Of a stretch of 64,000 nt of DNA, positions 17,189 to 53,330 are shown one piece after another. The DNA is from Candidatus Hadarchaeota archaeon (GTDB taxonomy: Archaea; Hadarchaeota; Hadarchaeia; Hadarchaeales; JAGGTB01): NCBI GenBank assembly GCA_964384105.1, contig CAYLJV010000004.1, forward strand, positions 32,001 to 96,000, in the 5' to 3' direction. The notes below the pieces were generated by a model. It was given only the letters and a program-made list of their open reading frames with translations, ran no database searches and was not told where the DNA came from. Position 1 is the stretch's first letter, and every line of letters starts with the position of its first letter. The translations under genes and the position numbers were made by a program.

Positions 17189-17268
17189 GCCCCGGTAGCT
17201 CAGTTCCGGTCTAGAGCGCACCCTTGGTAAGGGTGAGGTCGCGGGTTCGAATCTCGCCCGGGGCTCCA
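17189..17268 (+). tRNA. tRNA-Thr(GGU), CCA encoded
   Basis: GCCCCGG/CCGGGGC acceptor stem, CACCC-TTGGTAA-GGGTG anticodon arm, GGTTCGAATC. Confidence 0.96.
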
Positions 17269-18042: not shown

Positions 18043-18170
18043 TTATCCTAAAATTTTCAACTCGGCCTTTATCGTAAATCTCTTTTAATTTCTTAGGACT
18101 GGAATCTGAGCAGTGTTGTCCTAAAACACTTTTAGGGATCCGACCACAAAGAGCGTCTATATACTCACCA
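18043..18170 (-). pseudogene. tyrosine integrase C-terminal fragment
   Basis: EYIDALCGRIPKSVLGQHCSDSSPKKLKEIYD then (after one extra A) KAELKILG*; resembles the archaeal integrase tail D.FCGRVP.SVL..HY.D.SP..L..IYDKA.L.VL, with catalytic Tyr replaced by Cys. Confidence 0.6.
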
Positions 18171-18201
18171 GAACTTTTTACTTGAGTTTTTTATTATTAT
18201 C

Positions 18202-18738: not shown

Positions 18739-18819
18739 TTTATTTTGTAATTATTTAGTTAATTTCAATCTTATTTTTAATTTTGTTTTACCATTTTCTG
18801 GTTGTAATGGTTGTTTAAA

Positions 18820-18872
18820 ATGGAGGTACCGCCCCGGCCAGTCCTCGAAAGTCCGTGTGACCCTCTGATGTT
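18820..18872 (+). ncRNA. putative box C/D-like guide sRNA (23S P-loop)
   Basis: GC-rich 50-nt island in an AT-rich spacer; GTACCGCCCCGGCCA complementary to the conserved 23S P-loop; CTGA box at 18865-18868 followed by a T-tract; C box degenerate. Confidence 0.5.
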
Positions 18873-19005
18873 CTTTTTATTTTTCTAAACAAACACTTTA
18901 GTGTTATAGAAAAATTTTTAACAAATTGTAAAAATATTTATAGGAGCTTGGGGGTGACCTAGAGAGAATTTTCCAGTTAAGGTGATTTTATTAACATTTC
19001 AGTTA

Positions 19006-19236
19006 TCATGCTCCCGCCGGTGAATTTCTTCTCTTGAGAATCGAATTTTACAACACCGGCGGTATGTGCCCCTGGGATTTCTCAACTCCTTGTTTGCACA
19101 GCTAGGGGCACTGGGGCTGGGCGTGCCGGTGGGCTCTGCTTCGGTCGGCTACCGACTGTTTGTTTTGCAACCTGCCCGCGAAAGGGTAACATCCCCGGCC
19201 CCTTAATCTCACTATCTCGAACTCATAATTAGAATT
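19006..19236 (+). ncRNA. unrecognised structured RNA motif, copy 1
   Basis: Stems 19014-22/19054-62, 19066-75/19102-11, 19113-21/19194-202, 19128-33/19171-76; G-U pairs favour the + strand; homologous to 52864-53138(-). Confidence 0.7.
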
Positions 19237-19321
19237 AAAATGGTTTTCGGTTGACTAAAAAATCCTATACGAAACTTCCGGACTTATGGAAGTATTAATA
19301 ATTCTATAATGAAAGAATAAG

Positions 19322-19932: not shown

Positions 19933-21405
19933 ATGTTTTCGTCAAAAATACCCAGATGTATGTCCACTCAACATCCGGACAATGCAAATCAGCCGATCTT
20001 TGCGAGCGACCCAGAAACGCTAAGAGATAAGGATGAGATTCTTGAAGCGTTCTTTGCCTACTCGGAGCTTAAATGTGATGAACAGATGTGGGATATAGAG
20101 GGAAAAGAAGCGAGTAGGTCAGTTGTTAGAGAACTACTTGAAGCACATCCTGATTTTTTCAAGGAAAACAAATTAGGGGAGGATCTTAGACTTACCGTTA
20201 GAATACCTAATCCAGAATACGAAAAAGTAGAACAAAAGGCAATACTCGAAATACTCGAGAACATACCGCGTTCTTATGATACTGCTAAGGTATTTTATGA
20301 TGATGGAACCGCGCCCATATACGAAGTTATCTTACCAATGACTACTTCTTCGAGGAGTTTAGAGAGGATATACCACTATTATCAAGGATATGTGTCGGGA
20401 AAGAAAGGTCATAGACCCTTCGACAAATCAATAGAAGAATGGGTAGGGGAAATAAAGCCCGATCGCGTGAATGTCATACCCTTAATAGAAGAAATGGATT
20501 ACATGTTGGAAGCTCACAACATAATCAGAGATTTTTTAGAGGAAAAGGAGATTGAGAGCCAAAGAGTTTTTCTTGCTAGGTCCGATCCAGCTCTGAATTA
20601 TGGATTGATCTCGGCAGTTTTGATAAACAAAATTGCATTAAGTAAGCTACAGAAGCTGGAAGAAAACGTTTCTACGAAGATATACCCGATACTCGGTGCC
20701 GGCTCGGCTCCGTTTAGGGGGAATTTATCTCCAGATCGAGTTGAGAATACTCTGGCAGAATACCCCTTCGTTCAGACATTTACAATACAGTCTGCTTTCA
20801 AATATGATTATCCGAAAGAAAAATCTTCAAAAGCCATAGAGATGATAAAAAATGCTAAAAGAAAAAGTATTGATCCGATGGATGAAAGAAAGTGCCTTTC
20901 ATTAATAGAGAAGGCAAAGGGGGACTATAGAAAAAAAGTATTGAGTCTAGCTTCGACTGTTAATAAACTATCTGAATACGTACCTTCGAGAAGATCAAGA
21001 AAACTTCATGTTGGATTATTCGGTTACTCTCGAGGGATAAATGGCGAGAATAAAAGTTTTAAACTCCCTAGGGCGATTAAATTCACTGCATCTTTATATT
21101 CTATAGGAGTCCCTCCTGAGATAATAGGGTTTAGTGCACTTTCTGAGAAAGATGTTGAATTTCTTGTGGATGAAGCTTATAAGAAAATTCTGACTGACCT
21201 TAAAGATGCAGCGCAATACTACAATGAAGATGTAGTTAAAGAGTTTCCTTTTTTAAAAGAAGATATGAAAAAAGTTCAGGAATATGTCGATGTAGAAATT
21301 AATGAAGAACATAAGGAAATAACAAATCAGATTTTGAATCAGGAAACGGATGATATGAAAGAAAAAATTCGACAGGCTGCAGAAATAAGGAAATTTTTAG
21401 GTTAA
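19933..21405 (+). CDS. ppcA: archaeal-type phosphoenolpyruvate carboxylase
   Basis: IPRCMSTQHPDN, FLARSDPALNYG, GAGSAPFRG, TIQSAFKYD, LPRAIKFTASLYSIG. Confidence 0.95.
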   Translation: MFSSKIPRCMSTQHPDNANQPIFASDPETLRDKDEILEAFFAYSELKCDEQMWDIEGKEASRSVVRELLEAHPDFFKENKLGEDLRLTVRIPNPEYEKVEQKAILEILENIPRSYDTAKVFYDDGTAPIYEVILPMTTSSRSLERIYHYYQGYVSGKKGHRPFDKSIEEWVGEIKPDRVNVIPLIEEMDYMLEAHNIIRDFLEEKEIESQRVFLARSDPALNYGLISAVLINKIALSKLQKLEENVSTKIYPILGAGSAPFRGNLSPDRVENTLAEYPFVQTFTIQSAFKYDYPKEKSSKAIEMIKNAKRKSIDPMDERKCLSLIEKAKGDYRKKVLSLASTVNKLSEYVPSRRSRKLHVGLFGYSRGINGENKSFKLPRAIKFTASLYSIGVPPEIIGFSALSEKDVEFLVDEAYKKILTDLKDAAQYYNEDVVKEFPFLKEDMKKVQEYVDVEINEEHKEITNQILNQETDDMKEKIRQAAEIRKFLG

Positions 21406-43621: not shown

Positions 43622-45211
43622 TTGGATTATATAGAGCATCCTCTGATAAAAGAGAATTCTATCGAAGCCCGAGTTTATCAACAGGTGATATTCGATTCTG
43701 TGAGGAAAGAAAACTCCTTAGTTGTTCTTCCAACTGGCTTAGGAAAGACTCAAATAGCCATAATGTTAGCTGCACAAAGAATTACGAACTTCCCTGACCT
43801 TGATGTCTTAATGATGGCACCCACTAGACCACTAGTTCTTCAACACAGAGAAACCTTTAGCGGATTGATGACCCTGGCTTCTGACGATTTTAGTGTTGTA
43901 ACTGGAAGGATATCTCCTCAGGAACGAAAGAGTGTCTGGAATAAAGGAAAGGTGTTTTTTGCTACACCTCAGACTGTCGAGAGAGATATCGTTTCTGGAA
44001 GAGTTTCTTTAGACAATTTTTCACTATTGATTTTCGATGAGGCTCACAGAGCAGTTGGAGATTATCCCTATGGATTCATAGCTGAGAGTTACGAATCCGA
44101 GGCGGAAGAACCTCTCATACTTGGCCTTACTGCTTCTCCAGGGGGTACTTCTGAGAGAATAAAGAAAGTGAAAGAAAATTTGTGTATACGTAATGTAGAA
44201 GTTCGGTCGGATGAAGACTCTACAGTAAAACCTTATGTCCAGCCAGTGGAGCTGGAGAGAGTACTTCTGGATCTGCCTGAACCTGTTGCAAAGATAAAGA
44301 AATTCCTCGAAAAGCAACTGAAGGATCATTTGAAAGAGTTAAAGAAGATGGGATTTCTTGATTCCATTCAAAATGTTGGAAAGAAGGACTTATTGGATGT
44401 TCAAAAGAAGATCAAAAAAGGTCAGAAGGAGATGGGGCCCTCCCCACCTAGGCGATTCTTCACTGGGATGATGGAGCAGGCTGCATCCTTTAGGCTATCT
44501 CACTGTATCGAGCTGCTGGAATCTCAGGGCTTGAACTCTCTGAAAAACTATCTGGATAAAATTTCGAACCAGGTAAATAAGCAGGGTGCTTCTAAATCCT
44601 TGAAATTACTTTTACGGGATCCTAGAATGAAGAAAGTAATCAATTTGGTGGAGAGCTCCGCTGGCAGAGTAGAAAATCCGAAGTTGGAAAAGGCGAAGCA
44701 GATAATCATGAAACAAGTAACTGAGAAGCCGAATTCAAGGATAATTTTATTTGCTCACTATAGAGATTCTGCCAGCCAGCTTGTAGATTCATTCGAAGAT
44801 TTGAACGGTGTTCGACCGGTTAAGTTCATTGGACAGGCCGATCGAGGTGAAGAAAGCGGTTTAAGTCAGAAGGAACAGGAAAATATTTTAGAAAAATTTA
44901 GAGAGGGGTTTTACAACCTCCTTGTTTCCACAGCTGTGGGTGAAGAAGGCCTCGATATACCAGGGGTCGACCTGGCAATTTTCTATGAGGCGGTACCCAG
45001 TGAGATTAGGAGCATACAGAGGAGGGGTAGAACCGGTCGAAAAAGACCTGGTCGGGTGGTAGTTTTGTTGATGAAAGGAACCCGTGACGAGGCCTTTTAT
45101 TGGTCCGCATATCATAAGGAAAAGAGGATGAAGGAGACGCTCAGAGAGATGAAAAAAGGTGGAGATAAAGATAAACAACAGAAGTCGCTTGAGAGTTTTG
45201 AGGGGAATTAG
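43622..45211 (+). CDS. hef: Hef/FANCM-type DEAH helicase domain
   Basis: IEARVYQ, LPTGLGKT, FDEAHRA, GLTASPG, GEEGLDIP, IQRRGRTGR. Confidence 0.92.
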   Translation: MDYIEHPLIKENSIEARVYQQVIFDSVRKENSLVVLPTGLGKTQIAIMLAAQRITNFPDLDVLMMAPTRPLVLQHRETFSGLMTLASDDFSVVTGRISPQERKSVWNKGKVFFATPQTVERDIVSGRVSLDNFSLLIFDEAHRAVGDYPYGFIAESYESEAEEPLILGLTASPGGTSERIKKVKENLCIRNVEVRSDEDSTVKPYVQPVELERVLLDLPEPVAKIKKFLEKQLKDHLKELKKMGFLDSIQNVGKKDLLDVQKKIKKGQKEMGPSPPRRFFTGMMEQAASFRLSHCIELLESQGLNSLKNYLDKISNQVNKQGASKSLKLLLRDPRMKKVINLVESSAGRVENPKLEKAKQIIMKQVTEKPNSRIILFAHYRDSASQLVDSFEDLNGVRPVKFIGQADRGEESGLSQKEQENILEKFREGFYNLLVSTAVGEEGLDIPGVDLAIFYEAVPSEIRSIQRRGRTGRKRPGRVVVLLMKGTRDEAFYWSAYHKEKRMKETLREMKKGGDKDKQQKSLESFEGN

Positions 45212-52325: not shown

Positions 52326-52640
52326 GGTGGCGAGCTAGGCCGGGGAGCTAGCGGTTCCCTATACGAAAATCCGCTATATGTCGGGCCGAAGCTCTGGGGC
52401 GGCGTTCGGAACCACACGTCGGCTCGACTCGGAGCGTAGACGCCTCGTCCTGTTGGGTCGCTGGTGGCGGACTCTCAACCGGAGGGTTGAGACGAACCGC
52501 CTTCGCCTGCTGAATCCGGTCAGGGACGGAAGTCCGCAGCTGTAGGCAGGACAGTTGGCGCTTGCAGGGTCGCGGGGCCGAGCTACCGACCGAGTGTCAG
52601 GCGTGTGGGGAAGGCGTCCACCCAGAGCCCGTTCGCCACC
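52326..52640 (+). ncRNA. ffs: archaeal SRP (7S) RNA
   Basis: GGTGGCGAG/TTCGCCACC terminal helix, Alu-like CTAGGCCGGGG, helix 8 CAGG-GACGGAAGTC-GCAGC; 315 nt. Confidence 0.93.
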
Positions 52641-52731
52641 ATATTAATCCTGGTTTAGAGCATTGTCGAAAAATCAATATTTAATATTAATGAATGTTTA
52701 AGTTGAGGAAAAAGAAAAATAACTTGCAGAT

Positions 52732-52821
52732 GCCGGGGTGGCCCAGTCTGGTAACGGCGCTGGCTTGCTAAGCCAGTTGCGCGAGAGCGCTTCCTGGGTT
52801 CAAATCCCAGCCCCGGCGCCA
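52732..52821 (+). tRNA. tRNA-Ser(GCU), CCA encoded
   Basis: GCCGGGG/CCCCGGC, CTGGC-TTGCTAA-GCCAG, long variable arm. Confidence 0.96.
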
Positions 52822-52863
52822 TTTCTTTTGTGCGAAGTGAATAAGGAAATTGTAGCGTTTTGA

Positions 52864-53138
52864 TAATTCTAGTATTAAGATTCTTGATATTGAGAAGGAA
52901 GGCCGGGGACGTTACCTCTTTCGCGGGCAGGTTGTTGCCTATACTCTTTTATGTCGGTCGCCAACCGACTACAGTGCCTGCCGGCGCGCCCGGGACCCTC
53001 TGAACCACAAAGTGGTTCTCCAAGTCACCGCTTGGCTGTTTGAACAAGGAGTGAGAAATCTGCCAGCGGGACTTTTAATCCGCCGGTGTTGAAAATATAG
53101 TTCCTCAAGAGAAAAGTCAACGACCGACGGGAGCATGA
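52864..53138 (-). ncRNA. unrecognised structured RNA motif, copy 2
   Basis: Same motif order and stems as 19006-19236 with compensatory changes and one extra hairpin (GAACCAC-TTT-GTGGTTC). Confidence 0.7.
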
Positions 53139-53330
53139 AAGGATAGTCCTTTAATCAATTTATTCTGGTTTTACCTCCTTAACAGTATATAAACTATATA
53201 CTTCTATGTTCTATAACATATTTATATTCCCGGATTTTTTTAAAAAAAACGGAATCATCGATTGCGAATAGGTGAGATGAATCGGGAACATAAACGAAGA
53301 GACTCATTTTGGAGGGCTCTTAATTCTGGA

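Follow-up and report, generated by a model that had tools for sequence, protein, structure and literature searches.

To our knowledge, few archaeal regulatory RNAs are mechanistically understood, and almost none of them comes from an uncultured lineage. In Gram-positive bacteria, masking of the Shine-Dalgarno (SD) sequence by multicopy sRNAs is well known; known sibling sRNAs are smaller and simpler than a pseudoknot-bearing RNA of ~240 nt, and LhrC is ~100 nt long with a simple terminator hairpin at its end. sRNA41 of Methanosarcina mazei is encoded by a single-copy gene in a lineage unrelated to the one studied here, and the GC-rich-island ncRNAs of AT-rich archaea are represented in Rfam by the families HgcC, HgcE, HgcF, HgcG and SscA. 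LhrC is described as multicopy, with three redundant UCCC motifs, located in loops and a single-stranded stretch, that bind the purine-rich SD of their targets (PMC4132741), and sRNA41 has been proposed to mask ribosome-binding sites (RBSs) in an archaeon (PMC5867862).

Here we analysed a stretch of 64,000 nucleotides, referred to as the window, in which two GC-rich intergenic islands (copies A and B, Table 1) align block by block with a mean column identity of 76% over 331 columns, a similarity far above chance. An earlier note on this DNA had reported the islands as two diverged copies of a structured RNA; its positions were right and every block it quoted is present, so that the existence of the copies stands, but their number does not, since the genome holds seven members, two in the window and five (copies C-G) on other contigs, with pairwise identities of 54-81%. 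BLAST of copy A against its own genome recovered copy B as two pieces (E 6.8e-10 and 2.4e-9) together with four more full-length copies (E 1.5e-53 to 3.9e-19), and when the 1.62-Mb genome was searched with a covariance model built on the 3' domain, exactly seven matches were obtained (79-108 bits, E 1.5e-15 to 1.6e-22). A supposed eighth partial copy at about position 44900 of the window lies inside a helicase ORF and was discarded. The family is real, its fold is under selection, and it is non-coding, scattered among unrelated housekeeping genes and outside the described RNA families. Judging from sequence, the two islands are best explained as two members of a set of seven paralogues, each transcribed on its own to give a structured ncRNA ~240 nt long, in an uncultured archaeon with Hadarchaeota as the label of its closest named relatives.

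Table 1 Predicted features of the two family members located in the window (positions refer to the window).
Feature	Position	Strand	Remarks
Copy A, whole conserved unit	19002..19252	+	RNA predicted at ~245 nt, together with the proximal promoter box; extent of homology
TATA-like A/T-only box	18985..18994	+	20-29 nt upstream of P1 in copy A; putative promoter
Conserved 5' box, GTTATCAYGCTC type	19002..19013	+	directly before P1
P1 hairpin, 9 bp	19014..19062	+	19014-19022 with 19054-19062
Conserved motif TTCTCTTGA	19029-19037	+	in the large P1 loop
P2 hairpin, 10 bp	19066..19111	+	19066-19075 with 19102-19111
Pyrimidine-rich motif, copy A	19077-19094	+	in the P2 loop
3' domain	19113..19202	+	helices a, b, c and hairpin d
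Helix a	19113-19121/19194-19202	+	3' domain
Helix b	19128-19133/19171-19176	+	3' domain
Helix c	19137-19139/19167-19169	+	3' domain
Hairpin d	19141-19145/19151-19155	+	3' domain
Pseudoknot	19125..19149	+	GCC 19125-19127 with GGC 19147-19149 of the hairpin-d loop
Invariant strand CCGCGAAAG(A)GGTAAC	19176..19190	+	joins helix b to helix a
AU-rich tail	19203..19252	+	third pyrimidine motif and T-run
Third pyrimidine motif ATCTCACTATC	19206-19216	+	in the tail
T-run TTTT	19244-19247	+	in the tail; likely terminator
Copy B, whole conserved unit	52849..53142	-	extent of homology
Copy B, P1 hairpin, 8 bp	53080..53130	-	
Copy B, P2 hairpin, ~11 bp, two bulges	53024..53072	-	sequence unlike copy A
Copy B, extra small hairpin	53000..53022	-	between P2 and 3' domain
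Copy B, 3' domain	52896..52998	-	covariance model 78.9 bits, E 1.1e-16

As far as LhrC is described, the resemblance to this family lies in the organization: Listeria monocytogenes (LhrC1-5 and relatives) likewise carries several paralogous sRNA genes per genome, and in both cases a short pyrimidine-rich motif occurs three times, in two loops and one single strand. No sequence or structural homology accompanies this likeness (the Rfam search was negative), and whereas LhrC is bacterial with the motif UCCC, the archaeal family has a UCUCA/CUCC-type motif, a length of ~240 nt and a pseudoknotted, invariant 3' domain. No similarity was detected to sRNA41 either, as judged from its description. 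Furthermore, neither a description of a comparable archaeal sibling-sRNA family nor a paper dealing with hadarchaeotal ncRNAs was returned by a literature search.

The proposal of a stand-alone functional RNA family outside Rfam is supported by the covariation described below and by the checks that the earlier note had suggested: cmscan gave no match to the family, the covariance model uncovered further copies in this genome and one relative in related archaeal genomes, and the flanking genes proved to be unrelated housekeeping genes. With Rfam 15 (4227 models), the whole window returned only the SRP RNA and three tRNAs, and the loci of copies C-G and of the relative (in the congeneric genome G002) only tRNAs. 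Around copies A and B, a permissive search (E up to 10) yielded ceN36-1 with 21.6 bits (48 needed), the Listeria sRNA rli60 with 20.8 (60 needed) and snoR21 with 24.5 (90 needed), none of them over the RNA core and the snoRNA-type ones implausible; no ribozyme or riboswitch model matched the two copies up to the same E value. With the Hgc and SscA ncRNAs the family shares the appearance as GC-rich structured islands in AT-richer archaeal intergenic DNA, but up to E = 10 none of their models matches copy A or copy B, and in a host genome of 40% GC the island contrast is milder than in their hosts. RNase P RNA was ruled out, as a normal archaeal RNase P RNA is present at C3:148469-148758, and so were box C/D sRNAs (RUGAUGA/UGAUGA in none of the seven copies, CUGA in two at non-homologous places) and, by inspecting the alignments, H/ACA sRNAs (no conserved ACA/ANA after P1, P2 or the 3' domain). 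One short word in the family may resemble HDV-like ribozymes, but the nested double pseudoknot of that class is absent: helix a joins the 5'-most and 3'-most strands of the 3' domain, whose sole crossing element is the 3-bp loop pseudoknot.

The architecture, as modelled, is predicted to comprise two 5' hairpins (P1 and P2), a pseudoknotted four-helix 3' domain whose joining strand of 15 nt is invariant, and a tail rich in A and U that ends in a T-run, and copy A folds with an MFE of -84 kcal/mol (z -3.9 versus shuffles). With the seven 3' domains aligned by plain MAFFT, their 26 pairs (182 cells) are standard pairs in 96.7% of cells, with changes on both sides in seven pairs; none of 500 shuffles reached these values, and slid-register controls were 38-54% paired. 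Adding the G002 homologue gave 97.6% paired cells and 11 pairs changed on both sides. In the closing helix of P2, six out of seven predicted pairs show changes on both sides, and copy G retains the P1 helix, in which both sides differ at three positions. Stems kept despite sequence change, as the earlier note had claimed for its quoted helices, are therefore borne out by the pairing statistics. The GGC/GCC loop pseudoknot, which had been offered there as a possibility, is paired in 23 of 24 cells (seven copies plus the G002 homologue) compared with 20 of 24 for a competing nested pairing; its outer pair is G-C in five cases, copy F and the G002 homologue have U-A there, and copy E leaves the position unpaired. 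G-U pairs occupy 13 of 206 cells and would become A-C mismatches if the opposite strand were the sense strand, so the common sense strand that had been deduced from such pairs also holds. Since copies differing to this extent (54-81% identity) carry compensatory changes, the fold is under selection and not decaying.

With respect to gene boundaries, homology between the copies spans only about -95 to +251. An AT-rich promoter-like box is located upstream of each copy, with pure A/T 8-mers at -22 to -34 before P1 in five of the seven (A, B, C, D and F), and a T-run of at least four follows 40-52 nt past the 3' domain in all copies except B; we infer that these elements represent promoter and terminator. 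On this basis the end given for copy A in the earlier note, 19236, is probably too early, as the predicted RNA would reach the T-run ~10 nt further on. The conserved 5' box, which in its GTTATCAYGCTC form occurs genome-wide only at family members, could in copy A be either a 5' leader or a promoter-proximal operator, and its position just before P1 suggests a common transcriptional control. Copies B and D are convergent on tRNA genes (copy B ends 28 nt from the 3' end of a tRNA-Ser gene at 52732-52821 on the plus strand) and hence are not leaders of a downstream gene, a possibility that was ruled out, the neighbours being unrelated in addition.

It is barely credible that the islands encode a small protein, or that they are a chance, non-functional GC-rich repeat. 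Short ORFs do occur in six out of seven copies, and A, C and D have a PARERVT-like peptide word in common, of which B has a variant, but this word follows from the invariance of the underlying DNA; starts, frames and lengths of the ORFs differ, E and F are closed in the PARERVT frame, copy G has no ORF of at least 20 aa, and substitutions track base pairing instead of codons. No ORF is conserved among the seven copies, in agreement with the earlier statement that the reading frame is not conserved, and a small-protein gene was ruled out.

The genomic context raises the question of mobility. Copies B, D and G lie 28-205 nt from tRNA genes, copy A is 0.8 kb from a 38-aa C-terminal integrase fragment and 1.7 kb from tRNA-Thr, an intact integrase gene is found 1.8 kb from copy E and 4.4 kb from copy C, and the G002 homologue has an integrase 1.4 kb away. 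Moreover, the PEP carboxylase gene adjoining copy A is absent from the other eight genomes of the host's taxonomic family, the syntenic SRP RNA/tRNA-Ser loci of the genomes G002, G003 and G004 are without copy B, and the distribution is patchy. All this would suit cargo or a remnant of an integrative element, the RNA serving the element in copy control, immunity or integration, or else a decaying DNA repeat. Yet homology between the copies ends within ~100 nt of the RNA, so there is no shared element around them, and a larger common mobile element is not supported. In five of the seven copies no inverted-repeat pair spans the unit, the pairs found in A and F sit at non-equivalent places in AT-rich flanks, target duplications are not consistent among copies, and tRNA-fragment att repeats were not found on the contigs carrying them. 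A MITE, IS-derived repeat or transposon end, which the earlier note would have seen in a consistent position at IS ends, was ruled out by inconsistent terminal repeats, by the short extent of homology and by the divergence with compensatory changes noted above; the copies do not lie at IS ends. In addition, a pattern scan of viral contigs gave 0 matches, a BLAST search against phage and plasmid sequences was negative, and no gene recurs beside the copies, whose neighbours are mostly core metabolic genes, with C and E looking like a local tandem duplication that includes a TFB gene. We therefore consider an origin in mobile or decaying DNA highly unlikely.

Outside this genome, a covariance-model search of all 65 genomes of the order detected one relative, consisting of the 3' domain only, between two genes of a pst-like (phosphate-type ABC transporter) operon in G002. 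The family is absent from five out of six congeneric genomes, and two of the 65 genomes in the order carry it. Pattern scans gave 0 matches in a genome contig collection and 0 in metagenome contigs, where a second scan produced eight loci, none of them real (18.4 bits for the best by the model, the best pattern-bearing locus being a coding region of a GC-rich organism); the loci of the nearest named MAGs showed nothing significant, and four DNA contig sets of one study contained only the locus itself and cross-matching paralogues.

The G002 homologue carries CACCUCCU directly 3' of the 3' domain, and the RBS of the next gene, AAGGAGGUG, follows ~60 nt downstream. A structured domain, an anti-SD-like word and an SD sequence in this layout are also found in translational riboswitches and r-protein leaders, and could act as a translational expression platform; together with the compact pseudoknotted fold and its invariant joining nucleotides, this raises the possibility that the 3' domain belongs to a new type of small ribozyme or riboswitch aptamer, acting in cis in the pst-like operon and joined to trans-acting 5' hairpins in the present genome. 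We regard this as distinctly unlikely. Seven out of eight instances lie outside 5' UTRs as free-standing genes whose neighbours have no common function, and only one is placed in an operon spacer, which is not the setting expected of a cis-acting riboswitch. Riboswitch and ribozyme classes are normally widespread, whereas this family was found in only two species, with no match in the scans of public collections. The negative ribozyme and riboswitch models and the missing HDV-like topology point in the same direction, and the MFE fold of the G002 spacer leaves the tail-RBS pairing unformed (z-score only -0.83). Equally doubtful is the more general notion that the 3' domain could be an autonomous module of a new class with a metabolite, phosphate/arsenate or protein pocket, used in cis in the sister species and recruited into seven trans RNAs here. 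Were it true, one signal would be sent via the anti-SD-like arms to many mRNAs, and the family would be a ligand- or protein-gated archaeal sRNA family.

In the per-copy MFE folds, the three pyrimidine-rich motifs of P1 loop, P2 loop and tail lie in unpaired regions, the P2 motif of copy B entirely within the loop. The 16S rRNA of the same genome ends in GAUCACCUCCU, and the P2 loops of copies C and F contain UCACCUCCU, which equals 9 nt of this anti-SD end. The anti-SD-like motif is degenerate in four out of seven copies (A, B, D and G), and in C, E and F it is partly paired with upstream GGAG/GGGG in the MFE fold. The strongest duplexes predicted between P2 loops and start-codon regions involve strong RBSs of large ORFs, and the sites at C2:216701 and C2:221247 have 13 contiguous complementary bases in common. 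As any CU-rich query pairs well with RBSs, such a target scan has no discriminating power, and the 16S tail, used as a control, gave similar scores. A 5-mer SD word precedes only ~6-8% of ORF starts, a value that depends on crude start calls.

Several paralogous genes with their own putative promoter and terminator, and redundant exposed C/U-rich motifs that are complementary to the SD in silico, are the features by which sibling sRNAs are recognized, and our tentative reading is that the family may be one of sibling riboregulators. The seven RNAs would work in trans and mask RBSs: the pyrimidine-rich motifs that they expose would pair with the purine-rich RBSs of mRNAs and stop translation initiation, in the manner of the LhrC motifs and of the proposal for sRNA41, and the 3' domain would serve as a scaffold that resists nucleases or would bind a partner protein. 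Among the three options raised by the earlier note, a regulatory RNA fits best, and a ribozyme or the RNA of a mobile element is little supported.

Conservation peaks in the invariant joining strand (invariant alignment columns, an exact 14-mer in five copies and a one-base insertion in the other two) and not in the proposed seeds, which hints at another primary function; in base-pairing sRNAs the opposite pattern is usual. An unpaired 15-nt strand between covarying helices is a typical site of protein or tertiary contacts, three instances of the pyrimidine motif lie in unpaired regions, and the 3' domain stands alone in G002 and is thus autonomous. These observations fit an RNP scaffold or sponge, in which the 3' domain would be a protein site and the UCUCA-type repeats would bind or titrate an RNA-binding protein, possibly the usual reader of the 16S 3' end, mRNA pairing being secondary or absent; CsrB/RsmZ are the model for such titration by repeated motifs. 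However, no candidate partner gene recurs beside the copies, and neither a K-turn nor another known protein-binding motif is readable in the internal loop of the 3' domain, where inspection of the alignments found no conserved GA/AG tandem and the short strand has no conserved GA pair. We consider this alternative unlikely on balance.

If the genes are expressed, sibling riboregulation would add an archaeal sibling-sRNA family with a covariation-backed pseudoknotted domain and arms imitating the ribosomal anti-SD, which bears on an independent archaeal origin of SD masking by multicopy sRNAs, and the 3' domain would offer structural studies a small fold that is new; the very narrow distribution over two species limits the significance.

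A genome search with the reverse complement of the invariant strand gave no convincing site; its only match with a single mismatch is antisense to 23S rRNA, which means that the 23S rRNA contains a same-sense look-alike of the strand, ~0.5 such matches being expected by chance. At the place where copy B has its extra small hairpin, copy G carries a different one.

The earlier note had described two diverged copies of a structured RNA, and all sequence blocks quoted for them were confirmed when both places were read and aligned. Both islands are real, but the pair is incomplete: BLAST with copy A and a covariance model of the 3' domain recovered the same seven loci (copies A to G) in the window's own genome (G000, an archaeal assembly of 1.62 Mb in 12 contigs with 40% GC), the model at 79-108 bits and with no weaker matches. 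The copies are 54-81% identical at aligned positions in pairwise comparison, with A, C and D most alike, B, E and F sharing a longer helix-c region, and G as the outlier. Their fold is under selection, the genes are independent and dispersed, and they belong to no known family, membership in any described family not being demonstrable by membership tests, as the note had supposed. On sequence grounds this is a real, undescribed RNA family known in two species only.

Coordinates of the RNA copies and of other features discussed (C, contig of G000 unless stated; neighbours given for the RNA copies)
Feature	Position	Strand	Neighbours
Copy A	window 19002-19252 = C4:51002-51252	+	nitroreductase, PEP carboxylase
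Copy B	window 52849-53142 = C4:84849-85142	-	tRNA-Ser/SRP RNA, small ORFs
Copy C	C3:117731-117988	-	C and E together: TFB paralogues, a winged-helix protein
Copy D	C1:135624-135882	+	VTT-domain protein, TrkH, SufBD
Copy E	C3:120295-120563	-	as for C
Copy F	C1:397568-397832	-	flavodoxin, TenA
Copy G	C1:153781-154061	+	triosephosphate isomerase, TauE
Homologue in G002	G002:C102:2459-2553		
tRNA-Thr	window 17189-17268		
38-aa integrase-like stretch	window 18059-18172	-	
GC-rich element	window 18819-18870	+	
PEP carboxylase gene	window 19933-21405	+	
SRP RNA then tRNA-Ser(GCU)	window 52328-52821	+	
TBP/TFB region (L031)	C3:111000-127000		
Large ORFs with identical upstream stretch	C2:216681; C2:221264	+; -	
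23S rRNA look-alike	C6, about 67976-68002	-	
16S rRNA gene, two parts	C6:69770-70532; C9:16055-16757		

Two 5' hairpins precede the 3' domain, P1 with a large loop containing UUCUCUUGA and P2 with a loop containing UUUCUCAMCUCCUUGUU; B and G each have one more hairpin, placed after P2 and ahead of that domain. The 3' domain is closed by helix a (9 bp), within which helices b and c and hairpin d are stacked, and the hairpin-d loop pairs back onto the strand below helix b. The 15-nt strand joining b to a, CCGCGAAAG(A)GGUAAC, is invariant in all seven copies. Past the domain comes a tail, about 45 nt long, in which AUCUCACUAUC-like words occur.

In a structure-free MAFFT alignment of the seven 3' domains, 96.7% of the 182 cells in the four nested helices hold standard pairs, 7 of 26 pairs changed on both sides, and none of 500 column shuffles came up to the real alignment in paired fraction, number of double changes or covariation score. 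Since kindred sequences can exceed shuffles without structure, more telling are the double-change pair count and the slid control, in which moving the partners by 1-3 columns lowered pairing to 38-54%. Adding the homologue from the related genome G002 gives 97.6% paired and double changes in 11 pairs, in an alignment biased towards structure because it was fitted to the model. The pseudoknot proposed earlier, between GCC just 5' of helix b and GGC in the hairpin-d loop, is paired in 23 of 24 cells. At the outer pair five sequences have G-C, copy F and G002 have U-A, and copy E has a mismatch; a competing nested extension of helix b reaches only 20 of 24. The claim that stems persist through sequence change also held: P1 forms a 6-10-bp helix in every copy, which G retains although three of its positions differ from A on both sides, and P2 closes in all seven while its sequence differs in nearly each, RNAalifold giving 7 pairs with double change in 6, per-pair counts that are rough because the alignment ends are ragged. 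Thirteen G-U cells fix one sense strand, the fold of copy A has -84 kcal/mol (z -3.9), and, as the note had it, no reading frame is common to the copies, G lacking any ORF of at least 20 aa.

Similarity between copies begins 17-95 nt ahead of the RNA and ends at about +251; the duplicated unit is thus the RNA with its immediate upstream region and nothing more. Pure A/T 8-mers lie 22-34 nt ahead of P1 in five of seven copies, and from their position we infer that transcription would start within a few nucleotides of P1. Also ahead of P1 is a box of the TTATCAYGCTCCCG type, found genome-wide only at family members, which could be either a 5' leader or a common operator. A run of at least four T, often TTTTCG, stands 40-52 nt past the 3' domain in six of seven copies; copy B, which abuts tRNA-Ser, is without it. 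Between the nitroreductase gene and copy A, 130 nt upstream of the latter, lies a GC-rich element of about 50 nt with CUGAUG at its end and GAAAGUCC within, unique in G000 by BLAST and with only a weak snoRNA-like Rfam match (ceN36-1, 21.6 bits, E 0.21); it is possibly another small RNA.

Two covariance models (R1, R2), searched in 60 relatives and then in the whole order (65 genomes, 64 of them other than G000), gave a single match beyond G000, in G002, at 47.5 bits with R1, a model built without G002 sequence. This homologue is the 3' domain alone, with compensatory changes that keep helices a and b and hairpin d. It occupies a 180-nt spacer in a phosphate-type ABC transporter operon, with the second permease gene on one side and the ATPase gene on the other, near an arsenate-reductase-like phosphatase and an integrase; CACUCACCUCCUCUCC follows the domain directly, and the AAGGAGGUG site of the ATPase gene lies about 60 nt further. 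No such spacer exists in the pst operons of G000 itself. By the definition used in the genome set the genus is a deep one, the pst proteins of G000 and G002 sharing 58-66% identity. When 185,579 species genomes, JGI metagenomes and IMG/VR were scanned with exact patterns, possibly with records of the window's own genome excluded, no true homologue emerged. The window's DNA is present in metagenome runs from microbial mats, all from one study and none of those listed an RNA run. Contigs of a second sample have a 3'-domain junction at window 19124 whose upstream P2 strand exactly matches none of the seven copies (agreement 0.82), which hints at more variants among related strains from these mats.

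The flanking genes are ordinary and mutually unrelated, with no recurring neighbour family across the seven copies besides TFB, of which one gene lies downstream of C and another downstream of E, an arrangement that looks like a tandem [RNA...TFB] duplication. That the RNA belongs to a mobile element is very unlikely: tRNA genes lie 28 nt from B, 120 from D and 205 from G, E has an intact integrase at a distance of 1.8 kb, and an integrase fragment and a PEP carboxylase gene are close to A, but the copies share no consistent inverted or direct terminal repeats, their contigs hold no att-like tRNA fragments, and viral, phage and plasmid collections gave 0 matches. The fragment, 0.8 kb from A and between tRNA-Thr and the nitroreductase gene, is a 38-aa stretch that matches the C-terminus of an archaeal-type G002 integrase at 63% identity; it resembles what an integration event would leave behind. 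None of the family's other eight genomes yielded the archaeal-type PEP carboxylase (Pfam PF14010, E 6e-176); its gene may sit on an acquired island, or have been lost or left unassembled in the relatives. These neighbours hint at variable regions. The SRP RNA/tRNA-Ser pair is syntenic in the related genomes G002, G003 and G004, which have unrelated sequence at the position of copy B; the site is a variable junction, because the DNA past the tRNA differs in each genome. Within 12 kb, region L031 holds TBP, two TFB paralogues (66% identical, each with an RNA copy, C or E, ahead of it), a winged-helix regulator and the intact tyrosine integrase. The best named matches of a TFB protein (72% and 68%) come from two contigs belonging to a MAG that carries the label Candidatus Hadarchaeota; this MAG, the nearest named one, likewise has two TFB loci.

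The 16S rRNA of G000 ends in GAUCACCUCCU. Copies C and F have UCACCUCCU in their P2 loops; against this word, E and G are off at one position and A and B have one change each, D being degenerate; the G002 element has CACCUCCU in its tail. Words like UCACCUCCU and CACCUCCU are complementary to strong Shine-Dalgarno (SD) sites. Our tentative reading is that the family comprises sibling riboregulators, whose working ends would be three exposed pyrimidine-rich motifs masking ribosome-binding sites, while the 3' domain would be a scaffold that stabilises the RNA or binds a protein. We arrive at it because the functionally closest precedents are LhrC, described in PMC4132741 as multicopy sRNAs whose redundant C/U-rich loop motifs bind SD regions, and the archaeal sRNA41 (PMC5867862). 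The likeness would be in the proposed mode of action; the present RNAs differ from sibling SD-masking sRNAs in domain of life and size, in their pseudoknotted domain, part of which is an invariant strand, and in that this domain also stands alone in cis in another species (G002). Because the invariant part is the 3' domain rather than the proposed seeds, two other readings stay live: that the RNA is chiefly a protein scaffold, which seems unlikely, and that it is a sensor or ribozyme, which we consider quite improbable. In a scan of start-codon windows, the best P2-loop duplexes fell on strong ribosome-binding sites of large ORFs, a result that is non-discriminating because the 16S tail itself gives the same outcome.

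A same-sense 14-mer in 23S rRNA is one base off the invariant strand (GCGAAAGGGAAAC type); about 0.5 such matches are expected by chance and we treat it as coincidence, though it would be relevant should the 3' domain imitate a site on rRNA where a protein binds. An identical 22-nt stretch with a strong SD in it stands upstream of two large ORFs 4.5 kb apart, and 13 contiguous bases of this stretch are complementary to the C/F P2 loop; the N-terminus of one ORF is, we presume, aldehyde:ferredoxin-oxidoreductase-like. The 16S rRNA gene is split over two contig ends, with a tRNA-Ala-like sequence past its 3' end.
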